DNA from: Candidatus Taylorbacteria bacterium RIFCSPHIGHO2_02_FULL_43_32b
GTDB lineage: Bacteria > Patescibacteriota > Minisyncoccia > Phycocordibacterales > 2-02-FULL-43-11
DNA length: 55,695 bases
NCBI GenBank assembly: GCA_001820955.1
Contig: MHRK01000047.1
Coordinates: forward strand, 1-55,695
Reading direction: 5' to 3'
Part shown: positions 5,172 through 46,130 of the stretch, piece after piece
Layout of the letters: each line of letters begins with the position of its first letter
Numbering within the stretch: position 1 is the stretch's first letter
The notes under the pieces: generated by a model
Databases searched by the model: none
What the model was told of the DNA's origin: nothing
The model's input: the letters and a program-made list of their open reading frames with translations, nothing else
Program-made: the position numbers and the translations under genes

Positions 5172-5870
5172 ATGAACACTGTCATCGACGCAGGATCGGC
5201 CAAATTGGCTGGCTTGCAAATCGACACCCTCTCGAAATATCGGGCGGGTCAGCTCACTCTCGATCAATGGGAGCGGTTCAACAACCTCTCTCCGGATGAT
5301 CGGGAAGCACGTTTCGGCGATTGGAAGAAGCCGGAGCCCCGACGCCAAGAGGCGCCTGCGGAACCCACCGAAAAGTTCGCTCTGCTCGTGGACCTCGGCA
5401 TCATTACGGTGCCCGATGATTACGTGCACGACAAGCGGCTCACGAAGTTCGGTAAGCAGAACCGCAAAAAGTTCTATTACTACAGCGACGAGATCACCGA
5501 CAAGAACTTCCCGAATCCGACTCGGGTCCTGAAGCCTGGCGACAAGCTCCGCGTTCGCGCGTTCAAGCAAATCGTCCCCGGCACGACCACCTCGGAAGAG
5601 CGTATGGCGTTCTTGGCAACGGAAAAGGCCATCCACACCGGCGCACAAGGTGCGTCCCTCGTCTTTGATCAGAAGCGCGATCAACTGCCGAAAGGTAAGT
5701 GGTATACTTCCTTCGATGAAAAGGATCGTCTCTGGGCAGATGCCGACGGCTACCACGAGGTGCCGCTCGTGCTCTGCTACTCGGGCGGTGGCTTCCAGTT
5801 TCCCCTTGGCGTCTTCGAGAATGTCTGGGACGACGGCTATGCCTTCCTCTGCTTCTGCGACGTCGAGTAG
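5172..5870 (+). CDS. DGR variable (target) protein with a C-terminal VR
   Basis: 232-aa ORF, visibly GC-richer than its flanks. The last ~41 codons (ADGYHEVPLVLCYSGGGFQFPLGVFENVWDDGYAFLCFCD) align with the TR. An AGGA-type RBS lies upstream. Confidence 0.85.
   Translation: MNTVIDAGSAKLAGLQIDTLSKYRAGQLTLDQWERFNNLSPDDREARFGDWKKPEPRRQEAPAEPTEKFALLVDLGIITVPDDYVHDKRLTKFGKQNRKKFYYYSDEITDKNFPNPTRVLKPGDKLRVRAFKQIVPGTTTSEERMAFLATEKAIHTGAQGASLVFDQKRDQLPKGKWYTSFDEKDRLWADADGYHEVPLVLCYSGGGFQFPLGVFENVWDDGYAFLCFCDVE
5740..5861 (+). repeat. DGR variable region (VR)
   Basis: Ungapped match to 6234-6355. I count 19 mismatches: 18 opposite TR adenines and one C/T (6295 vs 5801). Confidence 0.9.
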
Positions 5871-5920
5871 CCCTTGGAAACTTGGGCACTCAGTTTGTTC
5901 TTCGGGTCCTTAGACCCTTT

Positions 5921-5955
5921 GAGCCCTTGCTTCACCGCGAGGGCTCAATTTTTTT
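5921..5955 (+). terminator. Intrinsic terminator after the DGR target gene
   Basis: Stem gagccct-tgcttcaccgcg-agggctc followed by aattttttt. A smaller hairpin gggtc-ctta-gaccc lies at 5904-5917. Confidence 0.6.
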
Positions 5956-6233
5956 ATATAAATTTTGTATAATATTGTCCGGAACCTAGATAGCGCATGC
6001 GGCCACGGTTTCATGCCATCGAATTCTCGTTTAAGGAATCAGCGAGCGGTCCGTCGGGTAACCCAGTAGGTCATTCTGCTGAATGAGCTTTACGGACGAG
6101 TGCTACCTTTCATGAAAAAATCAAATAAGTCGGTGCGATGTGCCAGCGAGTATAAGACTCGGAATAAAATTCAAAGGGGAGCTGGTGCTCTTCTTGGTGA
6201 GATAGACGGCGCGTCGTACATTGCTGATGAGGT

Positions 6234-6355
6234 ATGCCGACGGCAACCACAAGGTGCCGAACGTGAACTGCAACTCGGACGGTGACTTCAAGTTCAACCT
6301 TGGCAACTTCGAGAATGTCTGGAACGACGACAATGCCTTCCTCTGCTTCTGCAAC
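6234..6355 (+). repeat. DGR template repeat (TR)
   Basis: In the VR-equivalent frame it has 8 AAC codons, and all 8 are altered in the VR. It is non-coding in context (the ORF-track ORF 6221..6466 just reads through it). Confidence 0.9.
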
Positions 6356-6366
6356 TCAAATGATTT

Positions 6367-6389
6367 CTCCCACTACTTGTTAGTGGGAG
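6367..6389. terminator. 9-bp hairpin straddling the Avd stop codon, 12 nt after the TR
   Basis: Stem ctcccacta-cttgt-tagtgggag followed by ttttg on the + strand. Possibly a bidirectional terminator or a structured part of the TR RNA 3' region. Confidence 0.45.
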
Positions 6390-6714
6390 TTTTGTCTCCA
6401 AGGTTTTTCTTCCATCCACCAAGCATGCGCCCGACCTCATCCAATAGTAAAATGAGAGCACCGTAACTTTTATGGTCAATGACTTTATGTTCCCAGCTTA
6501 ACTGTAGAAAGAATTTGAGAAGATCAGCTTTTGCGATAGCCTGGGATACCAGGGATAGTTTCTCGAATTTGTCATAGGCAAAACAACCTCTGAATATCAG
6601 TTCGAGAAGTGAGAGGAAAATATCATCAACTTTTGCACCGATCGTATAGCGATCGACACGTTTTAAATTTGCGATTGAGCTATGCCACGCTTGATAAGCT
6701 TCTTTCGCACGCAC
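6373..6714 (-). CDS. avd: Avd-like accessory protein (four-helix-bundle / '23S rRNA intervening sequence protein' family)
   Basis: 113 aa, all-helical. ...IANLKRVDRYTIGAKVDDIFLSLLELIFRG...ALILLLDEVGRMLGGWKKNL resembles this family, which includes the Bordetella phage Avd. Confidence 0.75.
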   Translation of the reverse strand: MRAKEAYQAWHSSIANLKRVDRYTIGAKVDDIFLSLLELIFRGCFAYDKFEKLSLVSQAIAKADLLKFFLQLSWEHKVIDHKSYGALILLLDEVGRMLGGWKKNLGDKTPTNK

Positions 6715-6735
6715 AAGAACAAGCGGGATTGTTGC

Positions 6736-6746
6736 GGGGGGGGGGG
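6736..6746. repeat. G11 homopolymer tract between the divergent Avd-like and RT genes
   Basis: The run gttgc-ggggggggggg-tgac was counted directly from the sequence. Confidence 0.9.
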
Positions 6747-6772
6747 TGACTTACTGGTTTATTCTGCTCGTC

Positions 6773-7759
6773 ATGTTTACTCATACATACAATTCTATCA
6801 TTACGATTGAAAATTTACTCCTGACGTGGGAAAGGTTTTTGCGCGGCAAAAAGCACAAAAAGGATGTAATTAAATTTCAGGCCGAGCTGGCAACAAATAT
6901 AGCCAGCCTTTATGCAGACCTCAAAAACAAAACCTACATTCACGGTCCATATTCAGCGTTCAATATTTCTGATCCAAAGCCTCGCAACATCCACAAAGCA
7001 ACAGTGCGCGATAGAGTGTTGCATCATTTGATTTACAAAGAATTATATTGGCATTTTCATACTAGGTTTATTTATGATTCTTACTCATGCCGAAAGCATA
7101 AGGGAACGCACAAAGCCCTCGATCGTTTCAAGGACTTTGCTCGCAAGGTATCAAAGAATCATACGCGCACATGTTTTGTACTCAAGTGCGATATTAAAAA
7201 GTTTTTTGCGAGTGTTGACCATGCGGTTCTTATAAAAATCCTTGAACGCCATATTGCTGATCCCGATATCCATTGGCTCATAAATCAGGTTATCTCCAGT
7301 TTTCACACAACAGCTCCGGGTGTCGGATTACCGCTTGGTAATCTCACGTCTCAACTTCTCGTGAACGTATACATGCATGAATTTGACATGTACATCAAAC
7401 AGGAATTAAGAGTGAAATATTATTTACGATACGTAGATGATTTTGTGATTATGCATTATGACAAAAAAGTGATCATGGAAGCGTTGCCGAAAGTCCGCGA
7501 TTTTTTGGAAAATCGTCTCAAATTGTCGTTGCATCCGGATAAGGTTTTCATTAAGACGGCGTCTTCGGGCGTCGATTTTCTGGGATGGATTCACTATCCA
7601 AAACATCGAGTTTTGAGAACGGCGACGAAAAAGAGAATGTTGAGAAAGATCACCGCTACTTCTAAGCCAGAGACCGTCGCCTCGTACCTCGGACTTTTAT
7701 CGCACGGTAATTGCTTCAAATTGAGTCAGACGATATCACGTGGTAGACTTGCAAAATGA
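6773..7759 (+). CDS. DGR-type reverse transcriptase
   Basis: PRNIHKATVRDRVLHHLIY, LPLGNLTSQLLVNVYM (the [LIV]GxxxSQ signature of DGR RTs), YLRYVDDFVIM (YxDD) and GVDFLGW. The start is taken at ATG 6773; the ORF track begins at GTG 6746 inside the G-run. Confidence 0.9.
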   Translation: MFTHTYNSIITIENLLLTWERFLRGKKHKKDVIKFQAELATNIASLYADLKNKTYIHGPYSAFNISDPKPRNIHKATVRDRVLHHLIYKELYWHFHTRFIYDSYSCRKHKGTHKALDRFKDFARKVSKNHTRTCFVLKCDIKKFFASVDHAVLIKILERHIADPDIHWLINQVISSFHTTAPGVGLPLGNLTSQLLVNVYMHEFDMYIKQELRVKYYLRYVDDFVIMHYDKKVIMEALPKVRDFLENRLKLSLHPDKVFIKTASSGVDFLGWIHYPKHRVLRTATKKRMLRKITATSKPETVASYLGLLSHGNCFKLSQTISRGRLAK

Positions 7760-10238: not shown

Positions 10239-10314
10239 ATGGAACCTTTGAAAATCAAATTGTGGCCGTATTGGGTGAAAGGAAATTGAAAATGTAAAAA
10301 TCAAAATGGAAAAT

Positions 10315-10428
10315 GACCCGCCTGCTTTGAAGTGACGAGGCGCGATGAAAGTAATAGTTATCGAGTAATGTATAAATGTTATGTTAAGCATTGAGACCAG
10401 AGCCAAAGCATTTCGGGCAGGCAATGTA
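10315..10428 (+). repeat. 114-bp conserved 5' module (promoter-like region plus first 16 codons), copy 1
   Basis: 113/114 identical to the reverse complement of 24186-24299. Contains tataaat just upstream of ATG 10381. Confidence 0.85.
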
Positions 10429-10746
10429 GAATTAAAAATTTCGAAGTGGAGTACTTGGCCATATTGGTTGAGGGGAGGAATGTTGTTTGCTATCGTATTC
10501 ATTCTCTGGCTATGTCTCGGGTCTTATGTTGATAAAATGATCTGTATACCAACGCTAATTGTGGCCTGTCATCAATTTGCTTCTCTTCCTCTAACAAACC
10601 AAATAATTAATCCGCTGATCTGGATGCTCTTCGGTAGTTCTGATTTGATAATATATATTGCGAGTGGAACCGTTTACTTCCTTTGCGGGGCAATTCTCGG
10701 CTGGCTCTATGGCAAAATCAAACCACATAAAATTTTGTATTCTTAA
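10381..10746 (+). CDS. Small multi-TM membrane protein, WPYWLxGG...GWLYGKIK paralog family (P1)
   Basis: MLSIETRAKAFRAGNV..WPYWLRGG..GAILGWLYGKIKPHKILYS. Paralogs are at 22367..22741 and 23922..24233. Confidence 0.6.
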   Translation: MLSIETRAKAFRAGNVELKISKWSTWPYWLRGGMLFAIVFILWLCLGSYVDKMICIPTLIVACHQFASLPLTNQIINPLIWMLFGSSDLIIYIASGTVYFLCGAILGWLYGKIKPHKILYS

Positions 10747-21058: not shown

Positions 21059-21628
21059 TTAGTTTACTCTTTCTACGTATTCTCCAGTCGTCGTGTTTAC
21101 TCGGATCATTTCGCCCTCGTTGATGAAGAGTGGGGCGTTAATCATAGCGCCTGTTTCGAGTTTAATTTGCTTTGAGCCTCCTTTTGCGGTGTCGCCTTTG
21201 ACCGCAGGAGGCGCTTCAACCACTTTTAATTCCACTTTGATGGGAAGGCGAAGGCCGACCTGCTTTTCTTTCCAGGTTTGGAGGCCAATCAGAGTATTTC
21301 CTTTGAGGAATTGACCACCTTGGCCGACCTCTTCGGCTGTCATTTTGAAGCGCTTAGACGGGTCTTTGACTTCGCAGAACCAGAATTCGCCTTTGTTATT
21401 GTACAGATACTTAATTTCACGTTCGTCGATTTCGGCTTCTGGCACTTTGTCGGATTGGTGAAAGGTAACTTCAGCAACTCTGCCACTCATTAAACTCTTA
21501 AGTTTTGTTTGATTTACCGGTTTTCTCTGTTGCATTCGAAAGACGCGGGAGTCGAGTACTTCCCAGGGTTCACCTTCGTGCTCAATATATTTGTGGACAG
21601 TTATTTCGTTGTAGTTGATCAGTGACAT
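21059..21628 (-). CDS. efp: Elongation factor P
   Basis: 189 aa, with ...EGEPWEVLDSRVFRMQQRKPVNQTKLKSLMSGR... and ...VVEAPPAVKGDTAKGGSKQIKLETGAMINAPLFINEG.... Confidence 0.95.
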   Translation of the reverse strand: MSLINYNEITVHKYIEHEGEPWEVLDSRVFRMQQRKPVNQTKLKSLMSGRVAEVTFHQSDKVPEAEIDEREIKYLYNNKGEFWFCEVKDPSKRFKMTAEEVGQGGQFLKGNTLIGLQTWKEKQVGLRLPIKVELKVVEAPPAVKGDTAKGGSKQIKLETGAMINAPLFINEGEMIRVNTTTGEYVERVN

Positions 21629-21750: not shown

Positions 21751-21927
21751 ATGAGCGAAAAAAAATGTCATCTGTGTGGGGCTTCTCTATCTGCAGAAGA
21801 AGAGCAGCGGATTGACGGAAAACCTGTTTGTGATGATTGTTACTATGAGCAGATGGGGAAAGAAATCGATTGCAATCCTATAATAAATCCAGATCTGGTA
21901 TTAGAGCGCCAGCAACATAAAGACTAG
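21751..21927 (+). CDS. 58-aa zinc-ribbon-like small protein (below the ORF-track cutoff)
   Basis: Hand translation: MSEKKCHLCGASLSAEEEQRIDGKPVCDDCYYEQMGKEIDCNPIINPDLVLERQQHKD. It has a CxxC...CxxC arrangement. Confidence 0.4.
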   Translation: MSEKKCHLCGASLSAEEEQRIDGKPVCDDCYYEQMGKEIDCNPIINPDLVLERQQHKD

Positions 21928-21988
21928 CATTCCTTGAAGGGGGTGCTTTTTCTTACCTAGTGTTTAAAAAGGATTTGTATTTTATACT

Positions 21989-22083
21989 TCTTTCAGTTTT
22001 TCTCTAATCAGCTTCAAAATCTCGTTCTCTATCTTGGAGTTTTCCTTAAGGAATTGTCTGGTGGCGTCATAACCGCGGCCAAT
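21989..22083 (-). pseudogene. Detached duplicate of the recA 3' end (last ~31 codons)
   Basis: 94/95 identical to 22808-22902. It would encode ..[32 protein letters not shown], in frame behind the TGA stop of ORF 22087..22341. Confidence 0.85.
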
Positions 22084-22086
22084 TGA

Positions 22087-22341
22087 TCAGAATTTGAGCT
22101 TAACGCCAGTCTTCTTAGCAATTTCTTTAATCCATTCTTCGTGACGGCTGAGCTGCATTTTAATAGCGCTGTATTCAATTCGAAGGTCATCGATAACTTT
22201 TGCAAGTCCATCCACGGCCGTGGTTAACCCTTGCACGACTTCTTTGAGTGAAGAAACATCCTCCACTAGCTCTTTCAGGTCGTTTTTAGTTGCCAGAACG
22301 GAAGTTAATTTATCGATGTCTTTGTCTGTAAGCATGTTCAA
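22087..22341 (-). CDS. 84-aa coiled-coil hypothetical protein; the last codons are derived from recA sequence
   Basis: MNMLTDKDIDKLTSVLATKNDLKELVEDV... The C-terminal GVKL codons (gttaagct) match recA ..AVKLG.., followed by a 15-nt insert carrying the stop. Confidence 0.55.
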   Translation of the reverse strand: MNMLTDKDIDKLTSVLATKNDLKELVEDVSSLKEVVQGLTTAVDGLAKVIDDLRIEYSAIKMQLSRHEEWIKEIAKKTGVKLKF

Positions 22342-22366
22342 AGTTTAATTTGGTCAAAGCGAGCTG

Positions 22367-22741
22367 TCAATTTTGTGAAGTCGCGGAGCTTTTGCGAGTT
22401 TTTATTTTGCCGTAAAGCCAGCCGAATAGTGCACCTGCAATAAACGTAAAAACAATATTTAGCAGAACACCAGAAGGAGTCGGTAGCGCCCCTAGTTCAG
22501 TTTGTCTGAACATTCCTTCGTCTGTAATTATTATACTTGGAATGAAAGAAATTAATCCATTACCGATTAGGGTTAATGGTCCCATAATTTTCAAAAGTGA
22601 ATGCAAAAGACCTCCTTCTTGCTGCGGTACAATTGAATTATCTATTAAAATTGGAATGCTGATTATTATTACAACAGCCGATATCATAACACCGCCTTTA
22701 AACCAATACGGCCAATTTTCCCAAGTTTTCATGTTTGGCAA
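22367..22741 (-). CDS. Small multi-TM membrane protein, WPYW...GWLYGKIK family (P2)
   Basis: MPNMKTWENWPYWFKGGVMIS...AGALFGWLYGKIKTRKSSATSQN. Confidence 0.65.
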   Translation of the reverse strand: MPNMKTWENWPYWFKGGVMISAVVIIISIPILIDNSIVPQQEGGLLHSLLKIMGPLTLIGNGLISFIPSIIITDEGMFRQTELGALPTPSGVLLNIVFTFIAGALFGWLYGKIKTRKSSATSQN

Positions 22742-22801
22742 TTATTTGTAACTTTTGTTTCCCGCTTTCGCTGGAACGTTTTACGCTTCACGTTCTGGGT
22801 T

Positions 22802-23848
22802 CTACGATTCCTTCAGTTTTTCTCTAATCAGCTTCAAAATCTCGTTCTCTATCTTGGAGTTTTCCTTAAGGAATTGTCTGGTGGCGTCATAACCGCGGCC
22901 AAGCTTAACGGCTTCGCCTTTGCCGTCCGGGGCGGGGAATTCATATGACTGACCAGCTTTTTTTATCAATCCAAATTTCTCGCCGAGAGCAATAACTTCA
23001 CCTTCGCGCGAAATTCCTTCGTTATACATAAGATCGAATTCGGTCTGTTTAAAGGGAGCAGCCACTTTGTTTTTGACTACCTTTACTCTCACTCTTCCGC
23101 CGACAACTTCTTCGCCTTTTTTGATTTGAGCAATGCGGCGGATATCCAATCTAACCGAAGTGTAGAATTTGAGTGCTTTGCCTCCTGGGGTAGTCTCTGG
23201 GTTGCCAAACATTACGCCGATTTGCATGCGGATCTGGTTGATGAAAATGACGATGGTCTTTGAGCGGGCCACAATGGCGGTCAATTTGCGAAGAGCTTGT
23301 GACATTAGTCTAGCCTGTTTGCCGACGTGCATGGCGCCCATGTCTCCCTCGATTTCGTCTTTAGGTGTTAGTGCCGCGACAGAGTCGACGACCACTACAT
23401 CAATTTTCCCCGAACGTACCAAACTTTCGCAGATCTCAAGAGCTTGCTCGCCGGTGTCCGGTTGGGAAATGAGAAGATCATCAATTTTTACTCCGATTCT
23501 TTTTGAATATTCGGGGTCCATGGCGTGCTCGGCATCTATAAAAGCGCAGATGCCGCCCTTTTTTTGGGCTTCGGCGATTACGTGAAGTGACAGTGTTGTT
23601 TTTCCGCTTGACTCGGGGCCGAATATTTCGATGATGCGTCCGCGAGGAAGTCCTCCGACTCCAAGAGCCGCATCAAGTCCGATAGAACCTGTCGGGATGG
23701 CGTCAATGCCGACTTTAGGCTTTTCGCCGAGCTTCATAATGGCTTCTTCGCCGAACTTGGTTTTGATTGCGTCTATCGTATTTTGGATATCAACTTGACC
23801 TACAGTCTTTGCTTCTTTCGGGGCTTTATCTTTTGTTTTGAATCCCAT
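22802..23848 (-). CDS. recA: Recombinase RecA
   Basis: [17 protein letters not shown] (Walker A), [38 protein letters not shown]. Confidence 0.97.
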
Positions 23849-23921: not shown

Positions 23922-24233
23922 TCAAGTCGACGAATGCCGGGTCTTGATTTTTTTGATGGACCAACCGATAAAAAGTGCTACCAAGGAAACTGAAAAAAGT
24001 ATGCTCAGGTATACCACATAGTCATTTTTCAAATTAGTGAGGATGATGCCGAATCCTTTCGGACATGGACTATACCCATTTTCTGCCAAGCCTACGCAGG
24101 ATGGCTGAGCCATTAACCATAAATCCAAAATTATACTAATGGTTACCCCTAATATTATCCCTCGCAACCAATATTTTTGTGACTTTACATTGCCTGCCCG
24201 AAATGCTTTGGCTCTGGTCTCAATGCTTAACAT
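23922..24233 (-). CDS. Small membrane protein (P3) sharing its first 16 codons with P1
   Basis: MLSIETRAKAFRAGNV then a divergent body ..YWLRGIILG...LFIGWSIKKIKTRHSST. Confidence 0.55.
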   Translation of the reverse strand: MLSIETRAKAFRAGNVKSQKYWLRGIILGVTISIILDLWLMAQPSCVGLAENGYSPCPKGFGIILTNLKNDYVVYLSILFSVSLVALFIGWSIKKIKTRHSST

Positions 24234-24299
24234 AACATTTATACATTACTCGATAACTATTACTTTCATCGCGCCTCGTCACTTCGAAGCAGGCGGGTC
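24186..24299 (-). repeat. 114-bp conserved 5' module, copy 2 (inverted relative to 10315-10428)
   Basis: Direct comparison shows one mismatch (t/c within gctttgaag vs gcttcgaag). Confidence 0.85.
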
Positions 24300-24323
24300 A
24301 TTTTTCATTTTGATTTTTGCATT

Positions 24324-24689
24324 TTACATTTCTTTTGGTGTACTCATGACCATAAACTCAAGTAGTTTTTCGGTTTCTTTGCCGAAACGATCTTTAGCTT
24401 CAAATTTGATTATATTATAGCCACTCTGGAGTATCAATTTTTCGGAAAACGCCCCAGTTTCGTCAATAAAAATGGGGGAGTCGTTCAATGTTATGGAGTT
24501 GACCCTAAAGGCTTTTCCTCTTACTTCCACTTGAGGTCCGAAGATCTCTGTTTTATCTTGCGGGTAGATGATTTGTATTTCCGGACCAGAGAGATAATCA
24601 CGGCTTTCGTAATATATGTACCAGATCAAAAAACTTCCTGCTACGATCGAGAGGATAATCGAAAATATCATTTTTGCTCCTTTTCTCAT
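24324..24689 (-). CDS. Membrane-anchored hypothetical protein (single N-terminal TM plus a beta-rich domain)
   Basis: 121 aa. ATGA-type 4-nt overlap with the ftsK stop. Confidence 0.6.
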   Translation of the reverse strand: MRKGAKMIFSIILSIVAGSFLIWYIYYESRDYLSGPEIQIIYPQDKTEIFGPQVEVRGKAFRVNSITLNDSPIFIDETGAFSEKLILQSGYNIIKFEAKDRFGKETEKLLEFMVMSTPKEM

Positions 24690-39251: not shown

Positions 39252-39452
39252 ACGTTCGAACTGCGAGTGGTCGCGGTGCGAACGGTGGTTAAAATATTTC
39301 CTAACAGGAAATAAGAGCATATGGTGGATGCCTTGGCTCGAGAGAGGCGATGAAGGACGTAGCGTGGCTGCGATAAGCTTCGGGGAGGTGCCTAGCAACC
39401 TTTGATCCGGAGATGTCCGAATGGGGAAACCCTGCGGCGTAAAACGCCGTAA

Positions 39453-39644
39453 CCGAAGCATCACATGGAATGTGATGAAAAATGCAAAATGTAAATATCA
39501 AAATTAAAAATGACAGTTAAAAATGTAAAAATGAAAGAAATTGGAAAATGTTTTTGTTTTCAATTTTAAAAATTTGCATTGTCATTTTACACTTTGATTT
39601 TTTAATTTTAAATTTAAAGCATCGCGTTTCGCGCGATGCTTCGG
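39453..39644 (+). other. 23S intervening sequence 1 (helix 9 region), containing a family F1 palindrome
   Basis: Closing stem ccgaagcatc...gatgcttcgg. Modules are catcacatggaatgtgatg, an F1 palindrome, then gcatcgcgtttcgcgcgatgc. Confidence 0.7.
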
Positions 39645-39745
39645 AGCGTACCCTGGGAAGTAAAACATTTCAGTACCAGGAGGAGTAGAAACTAATCAGC
39701 ATTCCGTAAGTAGCGGCGAGCGAAAGCGGAGAAGCCCAAACCCGG

Positions 39746-39906
39746 CCGCATCTCATTGCATTCGATGCGGAATTCTTAATTTTTAAATTTTGTAATTTTT
39801 TAAATAATTTTCTAATTTCTGAATGTTTACACATTTGGTCATTGGGATTTGTTTAGAAATTAAAAATTAGAAATTAGAAATTCCACTCGAGCGTAGCGAG
39901 ATGTGG
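39746..39906 (+). other. 23S intervening sequence 2 (domain I), containing a family F3 element
   Basis: Closing stem ccgcatctc...gagatgtgg. The interior, ~120 nt (aatttttaaat...ttagaaattaaaaattagaaattagaaattcc), is closely similar to 44332-44442. Confidence 0.65.
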
Positions 39907-40221
39907 CAGGGGGTTGTAAGGTAACGGCGTCGGTTTTATATCGAGAAGAGTTACAAAATTGTTTGTTAATTGAATCTGCTGGAAAGCGGAGCCCAAGAAG
40001 GTGATAGCCCTGTAAGTGAAAATAAACAATCTCTTTTGCCGTTATTCTTGAGTACTTCGAGACACGAATAGCTCGGAGGAATCTGCCGGAACTAACCGGT
40101 AAGGCTAAATACTCATCGAGACCGATAGTGAACTAGTACCGCGAGGGAAAGGTGAAAAGCAGTCCGTTGAGGACGATGAAATAGACCTGAAACCATATTG
40201 CTTACAAAGAGTTGTAGCGGG

Positions 40222-40368
40222 CGCATCACATGGGATGTGATGCGGATATGAATTATGAATAAGGAATTATGAATTATGCCGGGAAAATTGCGTAGCAATT
40301 TTCCCCAACCATTATTCATAATTCATACTTCTTAATTCATGCTTGAGCATCGCGTTTCGCGTGATGCG
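40222..40368 (+). other. 23S intervening sequence 3 (helix 25 region), containing a family F2 palindrome
   Basis: gcatcacatgggatgtgatgc, then an F2 palindrome (gaattatgaataaggaattatgaattatg...), then gcatcgcgtttcgcgtgatgc. Confidence 0.7.
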
Positions 40369-40994
40369 TCCGTGGCAGCGTGCCTATTGAAGAATGAGCC
40401 AACGAGTTGATGCATTCGGCGAGGCGAACTCCCGTTAAAGGAGGAAGCCGTAGGGAAACCGAGTGTTAATAGCGCGAATAGTCTAATGCATCAGACCCGA
40501 AGCCAAGTGAGCTTGCCTTGAGCAGGATGAACCCTCGAGAAATCGAGGGGAAGGTCCGAACGCTAGAGCTGTGCAATACTCTGCGATGACTTGAGGTAAG
40601 AAGTGATAAGCTAATCGAACTTGGTAATAGCTGGTTCTCTCCGAAATAGCTTTTGGGCTAGCGTCGAGTGATCCTTTAAGGGGTAGAGCACTGGATGGTC
40701 TGGACAGGTCGAAAGACCGCTAGACCAATCAAACTCCGAATACTTAGAGTTATAACTCGGCAGTTACACCGTGGGGGCGAAGCTTCACTGGTGAAAAGGG
40801 AAACAGCCCGGATCTCCAAATAAGGTCCCTAAATTTATGCTAAGTGCATCACAAGGTGGTGAAATTTCTCAAACAATGAGGATGTCGGCTTAGAAGCAGC
40901 CATCATTCAAAGAAAGCGTAACAGCTCACTCATCGAGAGATTTTGCGCCGAAGATAATCGGGGCTAAGCATAGTACCGAATTTGAGGGCACAGG

Positions 40995-41131
40995 AAGCAT
41001 CACATTGCATGTGATGCGAATTATGCAGTATGAATTATGAATTAAGGTTTTCGGAAAATCGCTTTGCGATTTTCCTCCATAATACATAATTCATTATTCA
41101 TAATTCGGCATCGTGCGTAGCGCGATGCTTC
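40995..41131 (+). other. 23S intervening sequence 4 (helix 45 region), containing a family F2 palindrome
   Basis: Closing stem gaagcatc...gatgcttc. Modules are catcacattgcatgtgatg, an F2 palindrome, then gcatcgtgcgtagcgcgatgc. Confidence 0.7.
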
Positions 41132-41673
41132 TCGTGCGGTAGGAGAGTTTTCGCATCTGCTGTGAAGGTGAAGGGGTGACCCACACTGGAGCGTTGCGAA
41201 GTAAGAATGTTGGCACAAGTAACCACATTAGGGGTGAGAAACCCCTACGCCGAAATACCAAGGTTTCCTTGGCAATGATTGTCAGCCAAGGGTTAGTCGG
41301 TCCTAAGGGAATGGCGAAAGCCGCACCCGATGGATATACGGTTAATATTCCGTAACTTTCGTGCGAAACGATGAGATGACGAAGTGTAGTATGCTCTGCG
41401 CATTATTGGATTTGACGTTTGACGCGTCAGGACGGCTTTTAGGTAAGTCCGGGAGCCTGCCTTTAATGGCGATTCCAAACGCGGCAAGAATCCCAAGGGC
41501 AACCGAGGGAAATAGGGCAAAGCACGCTTCCGAGAAAAGTCTCTAAGTTTATTCGCATGAAATCCGTACCGCAAACCGACACAGGTGGTAACGTCGAGAA
41601 GACGAAGGCGAACGAGTGAAGGTTCTCCAAGGAACTCGGCAAAAAATCAGCCGTAACTTCGGAATAAGGCTTT

Positions 41674-41985
41674 CCAGCACCACTTTTTGGTTTTAAAATA
41701 TAGTTGTGTATTACGTCTATTTACAAAAACACACTGTAACCAAAGAGATTTATATTGGTAAAACAAATAATCTCAAGCGACGTTTGAGCGAACATAATAA
41801 CGGTGAACAAAAATCTACACATCGGAAAGATGGCGAATGGAAATTTGTTTATCTGGAGGTATATCGCTCAAAAAAAGATGCAGATGATCGTGAGATGAAG
41901 CTTAAGCATCACGGTCGTGCGAAACAAGAGCTATATAAAAGAATCAGCTCGTCGCTTGAAGATTAAAACCAAAAAGTGGTGCTGG
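41674..41985 (+). other. Stem-bounded 23S insertion (helix 63 region) carrying a GIY-YIG ORF
   Basis: A perfect 22-bp closing stem ccagcaccactttttggtttta / taaaaccaaaaagtggtgctgg encloses ORF 41706..41966. Confidence 0.7.
41706..41966 (+). CDS. GIY-YIG domain nuclease (small YhbQ/UPF0213-like)
   Basis: GTG start. YYVYLQKHTVTKEIYIGKTNNLKRRLSEHNNG...WKFVYLEVYRSKKDADDREMKLK. Confidence 0.75.
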   Translation: MYYVYLQKHTVTKEIYIGKTNNLKRRLSEHNNGEQKSTHRKDGEWKFVYLEVYRSKKDADDREMKLKHHGRAKQELYKRISSSLED

Positions 41986-42103
41986 ATGCAACGAAAGACT
42001 GCTTGGCAACTGTTTATCAAAAACACAGCTCCCTGCGAACTCGTAAGAGGATGTATAGGGGGTGACACTTGACCAATGCCAGAAGGTCAAACGACGGCGT
42101 TGC

Positions 42104-42250
42104 GTGCATCACATGGAATGTGATGCGGGATGAATTATGAATAAAGAATTATGAATTATGGAGGAAAATCGCAAAGCGATTTTCCGAAAACCCTAATTAC
42201 TAATTCATACTACATAATTTAATTCTCACATCGCGCTTCGCGTGATGCAC
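42104..42250 (+). other. 23S intervening sequence 5 (domain IV), containing a family F2 palindrome
   Basis: Closing stem gtgcatc...gatgcac. Modules are catcacatggaatgtgatg, an F2 palindrome, then catcgcgcttcgcgtgatg. Confidence 0.65.
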
Positions 42251-42319
42251 GTGGTGACTGTCGTAAGCCCTGGTGAATGTCGGCCTTAACTATAAGGGTC
42301 CTAAGGTAGCGCAATTCCT

Positions 42320-43381
42320 AAAAGACTGGGACCATCCAAAAGGGATGGAAAACTTGGCTGTATGCGGGAAACTCCGGTAGTATCTCGAGACTACTTTGTC
42401 GGGTATAATATGCCGATGAGTAAAAATGTTTCGAGTGGCTCCGATTTATGTCGGAGGCCGGACAATCCGCAGGAAACGTATGAAGTTAGTAATTTCTATT
42501 ATTCAGGATTCTTTGCAGCAGAAATGTCCTGTTCGATCATTAAAGCAACAAATCATCATCCAAAAGGCTATTACTATGCCGTTGATATAACGGTGTCGAA
42601 TGCGGATGTAAAGTTGCTGAAGAAGGTGAATCGGGCAGTCATGAAAGGCTCCGGGATTATAAGCCCCGTAAAAGGAGCTTTCAATCTTTCGGCGCGCGGA
42701 AAAGAAAAGGTTCGTATTGTCCTGGATTTTCTTCAGAAGTATCCGATTATTGTTGGCGATCTTGCTAAAAATCGGATAGCGATCTTAAGGAAGGCGCTTG
42801 CGTATCTTGATAATCATCAAGGGCACGTAACGCATGAAGAAAAAACAAAAATCATGGATACAATGCGGCGTAATCTCCGAATGCTAAAAGAAAAAGGAGT
42901 AATTGAAAAATCATTTGACGTCGAACCGGTGAATACTGATGCTGTTGGCTATTTCCTTTCAGGAGTAGCGGATGGTGAGGGTTCATTTGGGTCTAAAATG
43001 TCCGGTGATCGTAAGGAACCGTATTTTTTTGTCGCGATGAAAGATCAGAAAATTATTGATCTGTTCCGAAAATTTATAAATTACGGAAATGTTCGGGGGC
43101 GAAAAGATAAAGTGTTCCATTGCGAAATAAATAAACGGGATAAGCTAAAAGAAATTTGTACCTTATTTCTTTTGCGATATCCTTTGCATAACGCGCGACA
43201 AAAGGCGCGGTTGCGAGAACTTCAGCGGATCCTCAACGACTATACGCCAAGCCCCGCAATGGCGGGGATGATATAGTCTGAACTGCATGGCGACATGCAG
43301 AGTTCGGCTCGCGTCGAACCGCTTCGATTAATTTTAATCGGAGTCAAAATCTTGCACCCGCAAGGTTTCAGTAACAGAGTG
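42320..43381 (+). mobile_element. Group I intron with a LAGLIDADG ORF, inserted in ..GCGAAAUUCCU|UGUCGGGUAAG.. (about E. coli 1943)
   Basis: The 5' exon ends in U (42319) and the intron ends in G (43381). An S-element-like gatatagtc lies at 43269-43277, and the exon sequence is restored on removal. Confidence 0.8.
42362..43276 (+). CDS. Double-motif LAGLIDADG homing endonuclease
   Basis: Motifs YYSGFFAAEMSCSI and VGYFLSGVADGEGSFG. The start is uncertain (the internal ATG 42410 is possible). Confidence 0.85.
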   Translation: MRETPVVSRDYFVGYNMPMSKNVSSGSDLCRRPDNPQETYEVSNFYYSGFFAAEMSCSIIKATNHHPKGYYYAVDITVSNADVKLLKKVNRAVMKGSGIISPVKGAFNLSARGKEKVRIVLDFLQKYPIIVGDLAKNRIAILRKALAYLDNHQGHVTHEEKTKIMDTMRRNLRMLKEKGVIEKSFDVEPVNTDAVGYFLSGVADGEGSFGSKMSGDRKEPYFFVAMKDQKIIDLFRKFINYGNVRGRKDKVFHCEINKRDKLKEICTLFLLRYPLHNARQKARLRELQRILNDYTPSPAMAGMI

Positions 43382-43698
43382 TGTCGGGTAAGTTCCGACG
43401 CGTTGAATAGTGTCATGTCTGAGCAACTGTCTCGGAGAACAGCTCGGTGAAAATACAGTACCGGTGAAGATGCCGGTTACCTGCAGCTAGACGAAAAGAC
43501 CCTGGAAGCTTTACTACAACTTGGTATTGAGTATATGTTTTTTATGCGTAGCGTAGACGTTAGGCTTTGAAGTGTCCCTTTCGGGGGGCATGGAGCCGCC
43601 AATGAAACAGCGTTCTTAAAAAATATATATTCTAACCTGTGCGGCAAAAACGTACGGGAACAGTATCTGGCGGGTAGTTTTGGTGGGGCGCTATCCTT

Positions 43699-44657
43699 GA
43701 GAACGTGAATTTTTTCGTGTTCTCAAACTATGGCGCCTCCGGCAAGGTTAATCTCTTGCGAAAAAAATAAAGTTAGAGGGCGTCATAAATTCAAAATGCA
43801 AAAATCAAAATGAAAAATGACCCCAGTAGCAGAGCAAATCTCGCTACGGGGCAGGCAATTGCAAAATGAAAAAATGACGGGTAAATCAGCGATATGCTGG
43901 GAAATCTGGTGTATCCGCAGCTACTTGGTGTACAATAGGAATGTTATAAATATCTAAATTTTTAATAACATGTCCGAAGAAATGCCAAGTGAAAATGCTA
44001 GCGGTGCAGAAAACCAGCAGGAATCTACTAACGAGCTTATTGAACGGTTTAGAAACCAACCAATTGAACAATATAAAATCGAGTTAATCAGAAAAGCCGA
44101 TGTAATTGAAAATAGGATTAGACATGTTAAAGACCTAATTCAAGAGTACGACGGAACTCATGGCGATATGAGTAGTATTTTTACGGGTCGATTGGGTGCA
44201 ATAGGAAGAAAACTTGATGAAATGGAGGAAGCCTTGGACTTTAATTTGAAGTCAGTAGCATTCATGAAAAGTCAGGAAAAGTAGTGGATATTCCTCAGAG
44301 ACCACCAGCTGATGCCTGTGAATACAGGAATGATTAATTTTTGAATTTTTCAATTTTTAAATAATGTTTCAATTTCTTAATGTTTAAGACATTGGGTTAT
44401 TGGGGTTTATTTAGAAATTAAAAATTAGAAATTAAGAATTCCGATGTACTCATCGGTTAATGTATGGTCCGAACTCTACCCTTCGATAAGGAGGGCTTGC
44501 CCGACTCAGGGCAAGTAGCGATATAGAGAGACAGGCAGAAATGTCCTGTCTGTAAACAAGATTTGTGCTTTCGTTTGCGCATGTATTCGTAGTCATTCGT
44601 TATGATTCGTATACATTCGTAGATTGGCACTTAATTTTGTTGTACACAACAAAATTG
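43699..44657 (+). mobile_element. 0.96-kb composite insertion in the 23S helix 81 loop region (class unresolved)
   Basis: Flanked by ..ggggcgctatcctt| and |tctaaaaagtaacgaaggag. Contains F1 (43786-43880), F3 (44332-44442) and F4 (44578-44624) repeats and a 104-codon ORF. U at -1 and a terminal G are possible. Confidence 0.6.
43970..44284 (+). CDS. Hypothetical helical/acidic 104-aa protein encoded inside the 23S insertion
   Basis: ORF track only. No nuclease, maturase or RT motif recognised. Confidence 0.35.
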   Translation: MSEEMPSENASGAENQQESTNELIERFRNQPIEQYKIELIRKADVIENRIRHVKDLIQEYDGTHGDMSSIFTGRLGAIGRKLDEMEEALDFNLKSVAFMKSQEK

Positions 44658-44899
44658 TCTAAAAAGTAACGAAGGAGTCTATTAAGGTTCCCTAGGCGCG
44701 AATGGAAACCGTGCCGATAGTGCAATGGCAAAAGGGAGCTTGACTGCGAGGGGGACATCCCAAGCAGGTGCGAAAGCAGAGCATAGTGAACCGATGGCCC
44801 GCGTTAGACGCGGCCAGAGATTATCGGACAAAAGCTACTCCAGGGATAACAGGCTAGTTCCGCCTAAGAGTTCATATCGACGGCGGAGTTCGGCACCTC

Positions 44900-45287
44900 A
44901 AATCGGGGCGCCATACCAGAAATGGTATTAGCTACTTCGACATAACACACAGGAGTGAACCCTGTTATGTTGTTGAAAAATATTGGCTTATAACGGTGGA
45001 ATCCTACGAATAAATTTTTTGCAAAATTTAGGCGAGGACAATCCCGTGGGAACCCAGCACCATTTATCGTAAGACGGTGAATGAAGTGGTGTTGGCGGCA
45101 GTGCTATTTATGTGACTATTTCCAGAAAGTAAATAAATGGTGCTGGACCCGTAGAGACTTTCTCGATGACCCAAATCGAGACTAGTCCGGAATAAATTTC
45201 CGGGCTAACACGCCAACTCCTCATCCTCCAAAAGAGGGAAGGAAGAAGATATAGTCCATACAATTGGAAACAATTGCTAAAAGATAC
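44900..45287 (+). mobile_element. ORF-less group-I-like intron in ..GGCACCUC|GAUGUCGG.. (about E. coli 2500, peptidyl-transferase centre)
   Basis: aagatatagtcc (S-element-like) at 45247-45258, followed by a caattg-gaaa-caattg hairpin. It shares ggct(t)ataacggtggaatc with the next intron. The canonical U(-1)/terminal-G junction cannot be placed. Confidence 0.65.
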
Positions 45288-45319
45288 GATGTCGGCTTAT
45301 CACATCCCGGGGCTGTAGA

Positions 45320-45353
<34 letters not shown>

Positions 45354-45442
45354 TGCTACATGAGCTGGGTTCAGACCGTCGCGAGACAGGTTGGTCTCCT
45401 ATCTGCTGCAGGCGTTGATTCTTGAGGAGATTCGTTTCTAGT

Positions 45443-45890
45443 AAGTAATTGCTACTTTATGGAGTAATCCATAATGACAATTTGGCTAATAACGGTGGAA
45501 TCTTAAGGTTTTTGGTCTGTTGATAACCATATCGAACACGGTCCGGTGATTATGGTACAATTTACTTGAGGACCAGAAATATTTAAGACAATACCGTGGG
45601 AAGCATTAGGAAATTAAAAATGCAAATATCAAAATCAAAAAATACTGATTAAATTTTGCGAAAGCAAAATTTACAATCTGAATAGAATTTGTCCGCCTTC
45701 GGCGGACGCTTCAATTTTACATTTTGATTTTTAAACTTTACATTTTCTTTTGCCCCGTAACGACTGGAGTCCGCCTTATCGGCGGACGAAGATAGTGGTG
45801 GCGAACGATTTCGCGCCATTATAATATGCCAACGACCAATTAGATTGGTCGAAGATATAGTCTACACACGTAGTGATACGTGAATATGTG
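45443..45890 (+). mobile_element. ORF-less group-I-like intron splitting the sarcin-ricin loop (..CUAGU|ACGAGAGGACC..)
   Basis: The 5' exon ends in U (45442) and the intron ends in G (45890). It has aagatatagtc at 45852-45862 and carries a family F1 palindrome (45611-45746) in a peripheral region. Confidence 0.7.
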
Positions 45891-46130
45891 ACGAGAGGAC
45901 CGAAACGAACTGACCTCTGGTGTACCTGCTGTCGTGCCAACGGCACCGCAGGGCAGCTATGTCGGGAACGGATAACCGCTGAAAGCATCTAAGTGGGAAA
46001 CCGCCTCCAAGATTAGGAATCGTTTAGACCCGTGGAAGACTACCACGTTGATAGGCTTTAGGTGTACGCACAGTAATGTGTTGAGCCGTGAAGTACTAAT
46101 CCGTCGATCTTGTTAGGAAATATTGGAGCC

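Follow-up and report, generated by a model that had tools for sequence, protein, structure and literature searches.

In transformable bacteria, Campbell-type insertion-duplication, in which a circle recombines with the 3′ end of a gene through a single crossover, is a standard event. For rhs genes, a process termed 'C-terminal displacement' yields dissociated tips (Jackson et al., 2009; PMC2935791), and is proposed to arise when a circular intermediate bearing part of the gene plus new downstream genes recombines homologously (PMC2935791). In Vibrio cholerae, displacement of T6SS effector-immunity modules proceeds by homology-facilitated illegitimate recombination (HFIR) (Kirchberger et al., 2017; PMC5361080; for HFIR, see also PMC3240628). 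The recA gene is itself the target of the recA mobile element (RME) of V. cholerae, which spans 32.8 kb, encodes a phage integrase and XerS, is bordered by 9-bp inverted repeats, and interrupts recA while bringing a complete second recA (Rapa et al., 2014/2015; PMC4405046).

We analyzed a 55.7-kb stretch of DNA (hereafter, the window) from a groundwater Taylorbacteria genome, in which a 95-nt direct repeat of the 3′ end of recA flanks two small genes (Table 1). Most likely, this arrangement is the scar of a recombination within a highly variable spacer and not the footprint of a self-mobile element. The two copies are identical at 94 of 95 positions (blastn E = 3e-43), as a first-pass annotation of the window had reported, although its coordinates for the first copy were off by one base and the start-to-start spacing is 820 bp, not 819 bp. 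The first 91 nt are without any difference, and the sole mismatch, AAA versus AAG (Lys), lies 4 nt from the stop-proximal edge. The copies do correspond, as described there, to the last ∼31 codons of recA. The proximal copy (T) covers codons 317 through 347 plus 2 nt and completes the intact gene (…REKLKES-stop). The distal copy (T′), stranded downstream, is a startless fragment in the same orientation as its intact neighbor; it ends in …REKLKEV-TAA (GTA-TAA at 21982-21987) and is in frame with the coiled-coil gene ORF82, whose TGA precedes it. The repeat begins at an arbitrary recA codon and stops one codon short of the stop codon, and both flanks then diverge completely, which is the picture expected if the homology between two haplotypes stops there. 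The copies also differ in their termini, with T continuing into S-TAG and the ORF121 flank and T′ into V-TAA and the ORF58 flank. Because each copy has its own last codon and stop, both were presumably once real recA termini.

Table 1. Features of the recA-efp region of the window.
Feature	Position	Strand	Remarks
recA, intact, 348 aa, ends …REKLKES, stop TAG	22802..23848	-	Pfam RecA 4e-136, RecA_C; exact protein in 23 contigs read
Proximal copy T (recA codons 317-347); next come TCG (Ser), an unusual last codon, and TAG	22808..22902	-	
69-nt spacer from recA stop to ORF121 start	22733..22801	-	No homology to sister species
ORF121, 121-aa small membrane protein, 'WPYW' family	22367..22732	-	
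Promoter-like TTGACA-17-TAAACT just upstream of ORF82, overlapping the ORF121 stop	22342..22370	-	10/12 matches, best in region
ORF82, coiled-coil, 82 aa from ATG (84 aa from TTG), ends GVKLKF + TGA	22087..22335	-	
Junction 'tcaa' between ORF82 3′ flank and recA stub	22083..22086	-	Novel joint
Displaced recA 3′ stub T′ (95-nt copy 21988-22082, then GTA-TAA, …KEV-stop)	21982..22082	-	No start codon
Terminator-like hairpin followed by T-run, after ORF58, between ORF58 and stub	21926..21947	+	
ORF58, small Cys-rich (zinc-ribbon-like) protein	21751..21927	+	Convergent with recA
efp	21059..21628	-	Conserved distal anchor of the variable recA-efp spacer

That the duplication was produced by assembly, from a linearized strain bubble or a misjoined repeat, a possibility that the first-pass annotation had itself raised, is hardly credible. 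Several contigs do end at or inside the repeat (in an ENA SPAdes contig, the distal copy is present and the contig breaks inside the proximal one), but such breaks are expected of a true repeat. The arrangement recurs in no fewer than 20 contigs, drawn from several samples and built by three or more assemblers, and more than 15 independently assembled contigs (NCBI MAGs, JGI, and ENA megahit), from different samples and from Banfield-lab, JGI, and megahit (k141) assemblies, carry both copies with all four flanks on a single contig; the megahit k of 141 exceeds the length of the repeat. The stub T′ is invariant across all contigs, and the duplicated arrangement is fixed in the sampled population.

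The genes between the copies were correctly recognized at the outset as a small membrane protein gene and a coiled-coil ORF. Comparison with related sequences indicates that the latter, ORF82, is not the foreign cargo of an element for which it had been taken. In a sister species (RecA 95% at the amino acid level) the order is recA-ORF82-efp, with ORF82 directly after recA, the ORF82 promoter region conserved, and neither stub nor repeats. Thus, an ORF82-after-recA arrangement existed in the lineage. The letters gttaagct at the end of ORF82 had been interpreted as continuing the recA homology, interrupted by a 15-nt insert that supplies the stop. These letters and the 15 nt after them are present, but the ORF82 family ends in …IAKKxGVKLxx-stop in 27 of 27 members and the same gttaagct occurs in the ORF82 of the sister species, where no recA stub follows, so that the stretch from gttaagct to tga is the C-terminus of the family rather than recA homology plus an insert. 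ORF82 is predicted to form a single long helix spanning residues 17-76 (AlphaFold pLDDT of 89.8). Paralogues of ORF121 lie elsewhere in the window, at 10381-10746 (+) and 23922-24233 (-), and its family comprises 136 very divergent representatives. It is absent from the recA-efp spacer of the sister species, where a search for its remnant between recA and ORF82 found only the last ∼15-20 nt alike, just upstream of the -35 box, a resemblance that fits a gain of ORF121 as well as a loss. ORF58 is specific to this species and comes after the stub in all contigs; no instance of ORF58 directly beside recA was found in the contigs examined. Searches against Pfam, PADLOC, and PHROGs with ORF82, ORF121, ORF58, ORF103, and the 174-aa ORF of locus L096 (see below) returned weak coiled-coil noise only, with no match in any of the three for ORF121. 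One contig (L124) carries a small membrane protein gene, 'Z', upstream of ORF121.

The spacer between recA and efp is hypervariable, ranging from <10 nt to >2 kb across 69 species-level loci of related species, and the 70 ORFs within these spacers fall into 51 unrelated clusters. It is a hotspot at which events of this kind recur. In a distant relative (L096), a 36-nt perfect repeat of the last codons and stop of recA flanks the 174-aa ORF located right after recA, and constitutes an independent second case; the insert there starts with ATGAAAGA, which matches the first 8 nt of its repeat. An 87-nt repeat at L077, considered as a further gene-end duplication, proved to be an intergenic hairpin element flanking rpsR.

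We consider it reasonably probable that a recombination in the manner of the 'C-terminal displacement' of rhs merged two alternative arrangements downstream of recA and left the 95-nt copy, a displaced recA 3′ stub, as its scar. We infer two parental arrangements within one Taylorbacteria species, namely recA(…KES-stop)-ORF121-ORF82 and recA(…KEV-stop)-ORF58(reverse)-efp. In the direction we infer for the event, a segment starting inside the last 95 nt of recA would have been joined beside the 3′ flank of ORF82. This could have occurred by a single homologous crossover of a circularized [recA-end + ORF121 + ORF82] within the 95-nt homology, that is, by Campbell-type insertion-duplication, or by homology-facilitated illegitimate recombination of a linear fragment. 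Either route would leave recA intact and one recA terminus 820 bp downstream, startless and functionless, and neither would call for a dedicated mobility enzyme; the recombination system of the host would act. The copies, at 91-95 nt, would then stay substrates for unequal homologous exchange, giving a second 820-bp unit or a loop-out circle. The identity of T and T′ (94/95, versus 80% for the homologous segment of the sister species) suggests either that the partner DNA was conspecific or that gene conversion keeps the copies alike. Against the displacement model, neither parental arrangement was found in the species, no RecA ending in KEV occurs in a collection of 15 billion proteins, and the novel joint has only 2 nt of microhomology at most (the initial 'tt' of the stub). 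Contigs L017 and L018, whose 'TTA variant' was considered as a pre-insertion haplotype, were rejected: their tail is the stub, in which 8 of 9 G's are miscalled, the change from TGA to TTA is likewise G to T, and the sequence is an error-laden contig end. The tail of L018 had no match in viral contigs, and, these two aside, no contig has ORF82 followed by anything but the stub.

Products that join the repeats, which had been proposed as a check, are represented by two contigs (L110 and L111) from different samples (SRR2177952 and SRR1658344), both assembled at k = 127, longer than the repeat. At 596/596 positions, L110 matches the 820-nt unit, permuted as it would be in a circle or a tandem array. 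The same joint, from ORF82 to T (AAG, TCG-TAG) to ORF121, is found in L111, the last 76 nt of which switch to a different ORF82 allele. This joint fits a tandem duplication and an excised circle equally well, and suggests that the two contigs are candidates for ongoing unequal exchange (a tandem copy or an 820-bp circle). They are compatible with a natural 820-bp circle and do not prove one; as short metagenome contigs, they may be library chimeras formed at the 91-nt repeat.

The repeats had originally been taken for attL/attR-like marks of an element that integrated with a replacement gene end. Parts of that description stand: the duplication does flank inserted DNA and rebuilds the 3′ end of recA, which stays intact, the stranded KEV-stop resembles an original end (KE[V/I/M/L]-stop is the common RecA terminus in relatives), L110 and L111 hold the joints expected of an excised circle, and L096 offers a second recA-end duplication around an insert. 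The element itself, a non-autonomous 820-bp cassette with an attP-like replacement recA end that would depend on an integrase or Xer acting in trans, is nevertheless distinctly unlikely. As already noted in the first-pass annotation, no integrase is present: neither an integrase nor a transposase was found among the cassette proteins (domain search) or the 33 long ORFs of the window, a scope that leaves room for a trans-acting enzyme encoded outside these 55.7 kb. The site has no tRNA or ncRNA, and no inverted repeat with arms ≥8 nt lies in or around the repeat; the locus thus has neither the attC-type inverted repeat (arms ≥8 nt) nor the integrase of an integron cassette system. With regard to an Xer-dependent dif module (IMEX), which would be flanked by 28-bp dif-like sites with two ∼11-nt arms around a 6-nt spacer, inspection by eye found only the 12-nt palindrome TTCCTTAAGGAA in the repeat. 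The repeats of the window and of L096 cover different parts of recA, overlapping by ∼9 nt without a common core, and ORF82 is syntenic in the sister species without any repeats. Typical att cores are much shorter than 91 nt, and the perfect identity of the copies over that length far exceeds them. No empty recA site was found in related genomes, and the joint of recA, T′, and KEV-stop that a reciprocal deletion or empty site would have is absent from ∼45 strain-level loci. Nor was the cassette found at a second location. ORF82 has no relatives in viral contigs, and tblastn searches of ORF82 and ORF121 against a phage collection and of ORF82 against a plasmid collection gave no match. It is also quite improbable that the recA 3′ end serves in Paceibacteria as a recurrent landing pad for integrase-less cassettes (0.5-0.8 kb, 1-2 small genes), each with a fragment of the recA terminus as a 'homology att site'. 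Such a cassette would loop out as a circle when RecA recombines the repeats, and DNA uptake would then return it to genomes of the same or related species. If this were true, it would amount to a homologous-recombination cassette system that exploits the recombinase gene itself.

A history without any KES-stop haplotype can be imagined as well, in which a 725-nt foreign piece entered recA(KEV-stop)-ORF58-efp in one step and repair made a long target-site duplication, whether by template switching, microhomology-mediated break-induced replication, or fill-in of a long staggered break. The structure can indeed be written as T + insert + T, no haplotype with KES-stop only has been found, and L096 repeats the pattern with its 36-nt duplication, where the ATGAAAGA match hints at microhomology. 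We regard this history as unlikely, since the insert would have to bring an in-frame Ser-stop at once and would have to equal ORF82 with its promoter, which already follows recA in the sister species. The coincidence regarding ORF82 finds a simpler explanation in an ORF82-after-recA haplotype that took part as a recombination partner. Finally, the stub might be functional, with readthrough of the ORF82 TGA adding a RecA tail to the coiled-coil protein, or with a stub RNA regulating recA. The old recA tail does lie in frame behind this TGA, as first described, it does not vary among contigs, and some code-4 gene callers produced such a fusion (P0039, P0040). However, an in-frame arrangement arises by chance in 1 of 3 cases, invariance over 95 nt is expected at the observed strain divergence of ∼0.1-0.3%, no member of the ORF82 family has such an extension, and the terminator-like hairpin that separates ORF58 from the stub speaks against an antisense transcript. 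TGA is used as a stop, ending 5 of the 29 long ORFs in the window, and a sense reading of this codon was rejected for that reason. A function for the stub is accordingly highly improbable.

The displacement model would mean that Patescibacteria with small, streamlined genomes and without classical mobile-element machinery can still gain genes beside an essential gene that stays undamaged, through recombination that duplicates the end of that gene, and that the copy number of the added genes is unstable owing to the repeats. Provided that the junction contigs are real, unequal recombination is ongoing at this locus, which then offers a simple case, testable by PCR, from an uncultivated lineage. 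Annotators are cautioned against labeling such stubs as pseudogenes of a second recA or as att sites. Neither a new kind of element nor a new function is revealed here.

Among the described systems, the RME shares with this locus the choice of recA as the target and the preservation of recA function, and it excises as a circle. It differs in its 32.8-kb size, integrase, XerS, 9-bp inverted repeats, and second recA, none of which is present here. The locus resembles the T6SS modules of Vibrio in pairing an illegitimate join with homology on one side only, anchored in a conserved gene, in the absence of an integrase, and in the addition of an incoming module that pushes resident 3′ material downstream. 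In Vibrio, however, the old effector gives way to a new one and immunity genes build up, whereas the present locus shows no loss and a duplication of 95 nt. As in rhs and the orphan modules of CdiA-Rhs, the intact gene has downstream of it a startless 3′ fragment in the same orientation, near-identical in its proximal part and differing at its end, and the repeats allow later recombination. In contrast to rhs, the gene is the housekeeping recA and not a polymorphic toxin, the differing tip consists of one codon plus the stop so that no functional tip is swapped, and the stub is single, not part of an array, without the logic of immunity genes. Campbell-type insertion-duplication predicts exactly this order of an intact gene, an insert, and a duplicated 3′ fragment, with a repeat as long as the cloned homology and with excision or amplification reversible through the repeats.

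The recA gene of this contig lies on the minus strand in the order ftsK, a Glucodextran_B-like gene, ORF103, recA, ORF121 (a small membrane protein), ORF82 (a coiled-coil protein) and a copy of the recA end, followed by ORF58 (a small Cys-rich protein) and efp. The two copies of the recA end, T within the intact gene and T' downstream, are identical at 94 of 95 positions and lie 820 bp apart (blastn E = 3e-43), as the first-pass annotation had described save for a one-base shift in coordinates. T comprises recA codons 317-347 and continues into TCG-TAG (…KES, stop), whereas T' continues into GTA-TAA (…KEV, stop), has no start codon and stands in frame behind the TGA of ORF82. Lacking a start codon, T' is a nearly identical 3' piece of the neighbouring intact recA on the same strand; it begins at an arbitrary codon and stops where the gene stops, and both copies have a last codon, a stop codon and a flank of their own. 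Most likely this stub is inert, since TGA serves as a stop in this genome, no member of the ORF82 family carries a RecA-tail extension, and a terminator-like hairpin of ORF58 lies between ORF58 and the stub.

Features of the recA-efp interval and its borders
Feature	Coordinates	Strand	Remark
recA	22802-23848	-	intact gene carrying T
ORF121	22367-22732	-	
ORF82	22087-22335	-	
T'	21988-22082	-	95-nt copy of recA end
ORF58	21751-21927	opposite to recA	
efp	21059-21628	-	

The duplication is genuine and well replicated. Identical RecA, ORF82 and ORF121 proteins recur in dozens of contigs (NCBI MAGs, JGI, ENA megahit k141, SPAdes and Logan), and more than 15 contigs across NCBI, JGI and ENA assemblies hold the full duplicated arrangement, in which both repeat copies, their four flanks and the one mismatch are preserved; this led us to reject an assembly artefact. 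A SPAdes contig, one original-assembly scaffold and short-k contigs from Logan end within the 95-nt repeat, which is the behaviour of a true repeat. An apparent stub-less variant in contigs L017 and L018 was discarded because it coincides with a contig end at which almost all G's are miscalled (8 of 9 at the L017 end and at L018 4590-4632, mimicking a sequence variant); the ends of low-coverage metagenome contigs call for caution.

The gene next to the stub, ORF82, is not cargo from elsewhere. The ORF82 family (~82-83 aa, 27 clusters in Paceibacteria) shares the C-terminus …QLSRH(E/D)xWIxxIAxKxGVxLxx before its stop, and gttaagct, previously taken for continued recA homology, therefore represents the GVKL codons native to this family; the supposed 15-nt insert consists of the last two codons and stop of ORF82 plus the first nucleotides of the 3' flank. 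Two contigs of a sister species (L023 and L024; RecA 95% identical in amino acids, recA 79.5% in nucleotides) have the order recA-ORF82-efp; they share gttaagct and the TTGACA-17-TAAACT promoter region with the window, and ORF121, ORF58 and the stub are all absent from their recA-efp interval. In more distant lineages, ORF82 family members never adjoin recA. The protein is modelled as one long helix (AlphaFold, pLDDT 89.8). Around its promoter, which ends 6 nt ahead of the ATG, ~45 nt are identical between 22336-22395 and L023 1411-1470 in a background of ~20% coding divergence between the species, which suggests strong constraint on the promoter and a leader that is short or absent.

ORF121, a small membrane protein, evolves fast. 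A word-indexed search returned no close homologue outside the species, and an exhaustive search recovered 136 very divergent representatives. Two paralogues occur in the window, one directly upstream of recA, such that family members sit on both sides of recA. A 151-nt inverted repeat (10278-10428 and 24186-24336, 96% identical) spans the first 16 codons of the paralogues at 10381-10746 (+) and 23922-24233 (-) together with the sequence upstream of them, and points to recent gene conversion between them.

Among 80 species-level relatives the gene order ftsK, Glucodextran_B-like gene, recA, […], efp is retained. The recA-efp spacer ranges from <10 nt to >2 kb (≤100 nt in 22 of 69 loci, >300 nt in 35), and its 70 ORFs fall into 51 unrelated clusters; it is therefore a hotspot of small-gene gain and loss. 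Relatives' RecA termini are mostly …KLKE[V/I/M/L/E], so the KEV end of T' is the form common among them, and a KES end was seen in no relative compared. A distant relative, L096 (RecA 77%), carries the final 36 nt of recA, stop codon included, a second time without mismatch 556 nt downstream; the two copies flank a 174-aa ORF whose ATG overlaps the recA stop. This duplication arose independently, and since its overlap with the stretch of recA covered by T is only ~9 nt, there is no core common to the two cases. In this Paceibacterota MAG (JAOAUE010000005.1, L096 4521-5112), the 174-aa ORF terminates within the second repeat copy. A perfect 87-nt direct repeat with a hairpin around the ribosomal protein S18 gene of a Kaiserbacteria MAG (L077, 7307-7393 and 7711-7797) is intergenic and was rejected as a gene-end duplication. 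Palindromic direct repeats of ~80-110 nt that bracket recA in two relatives (L035, 3341-3452 and 4547-4657; L049, 3349-3426 and 4567-4643) may be a repeated intergenic element.

Elsewhere in the window, a diversity-generating retroelement (5172-7759) comprises a reverse transcriptase gene (RVT_1, 6746-7759), a template repeat (6234-6355) and a variable repeat (5740-5861) at the 3' end of ORF 5172-5870; the template base is A at 18 of 19 mismatches. The 23S rRNA gene (39301-46107) is matched in two parts (39301-42404 and 43456-46107) with a LAGLIDADG endonuclease ORF (42362-43276) between them, and so appears to hold an rRNA intron or insertion.

The first-pass annotation read the duplication as an attL/attR-like integration footprint, an interpretation that is only partly right. 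The duplication itself stands, and the noted lack of an integrase holds in that neither integrase nor transposase occurs among the 33 long ORFs of the window. The cassette proteins match no mobile-element, defence or phage family, and none of their relatives was found in viral contigs, phages or plasmids; ORF82 is not foreign to the locus. There is no tRNA at the site (the sole one in the window is 24 kb off), and inverted repeats with arms of at least 8 nt are lacking from the 95-nt repeat. No empty site was found in conspecific contigs or relatives: in the contigs examined, ORF58 never directly adjoins recA and a deletion joint of recA, T' and the KEV end is not present, and no RecA of this species ending in …KEV or …KE was found among 15 billion proteins. 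A joint between the repeats is present in L110 and L111, short contigs from different samples assembled at k = 127, which exceeds the repeat length. In both, the order is ORF82-end / tcaa / T(AAG) / TCG-TAG / spacer / ORF121, a joint that T'-T unequal crossing-over, giving a second unit in tandem, or excision of an 820-bp circle would produce; library chimeras at the 91-nt identity are also possible, and we rate the chance of real biology as about even. L110 matches the 820-nt unit, permuted as in a circle or a tandem array, at 596/596 positions. L111 (ERZ978281 k127_1863202) has one SNP in 671 nt and an ORF121 near-identical to that of the window; its final 76 nt (672-747), the first 76 nt of ORF82, switch abruptly to a sister-species-like allele at the conserved promoter and start codon, making it either a mosaic allele or a chimera. 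In L124 (ERZ27254749 k141_634161), ORF121 has the variant start MTWENW and follows the 3' end of a gene for an unrelated 64-aa membrane protein (88-91% identical to proteins P0041 and P0042); nucleotides 1-115 are unrelated to the window and the remainder is the same as far as efp, as in either a structural variant with an alternative upstream haplotype or a chimera.

The best-supported reading, which we consider probable, is that the structure is a scar left by recombination, through C-terminal displacement or insertion-duplication, within a hypervariable spacer adjoining recA. Such a scar would stem from the merger, within one species, of two alternative recA-downstream arrangements, …KES-ORF121-ORF82 and …KEV-ORF58, with a circle or linear fragment as intermediate and either arrangement as recipient. 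Microhomology at the novel joint amounts to 2 nt at most. Between T and T', 94 of 95 positions agree, as against 80% for the corresponding segment of the sister species; hence either the partner DNA came from the same species or gene conversion homogenises the copies. Unequal exchange may still be going on at the scar. A homology-based mini-cassette system that recurs and uses recA's own end as landing pad would be clearly more interesting if true, and we regard it as improbable. The stub shares the same four anatomical features with the C-terminal displacement of rhs loci, attributed to homologous recombination with circular intermediates (PMC2935791); in anatomy it likewise agrees with the displacement of effectors in Vibrio T6SS clusters, which is ascribed to homology-facilitated illegitimate recombination (PMC5361080). 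The structure is of a known kind, here in a new example involving an unusual gene and phylum.
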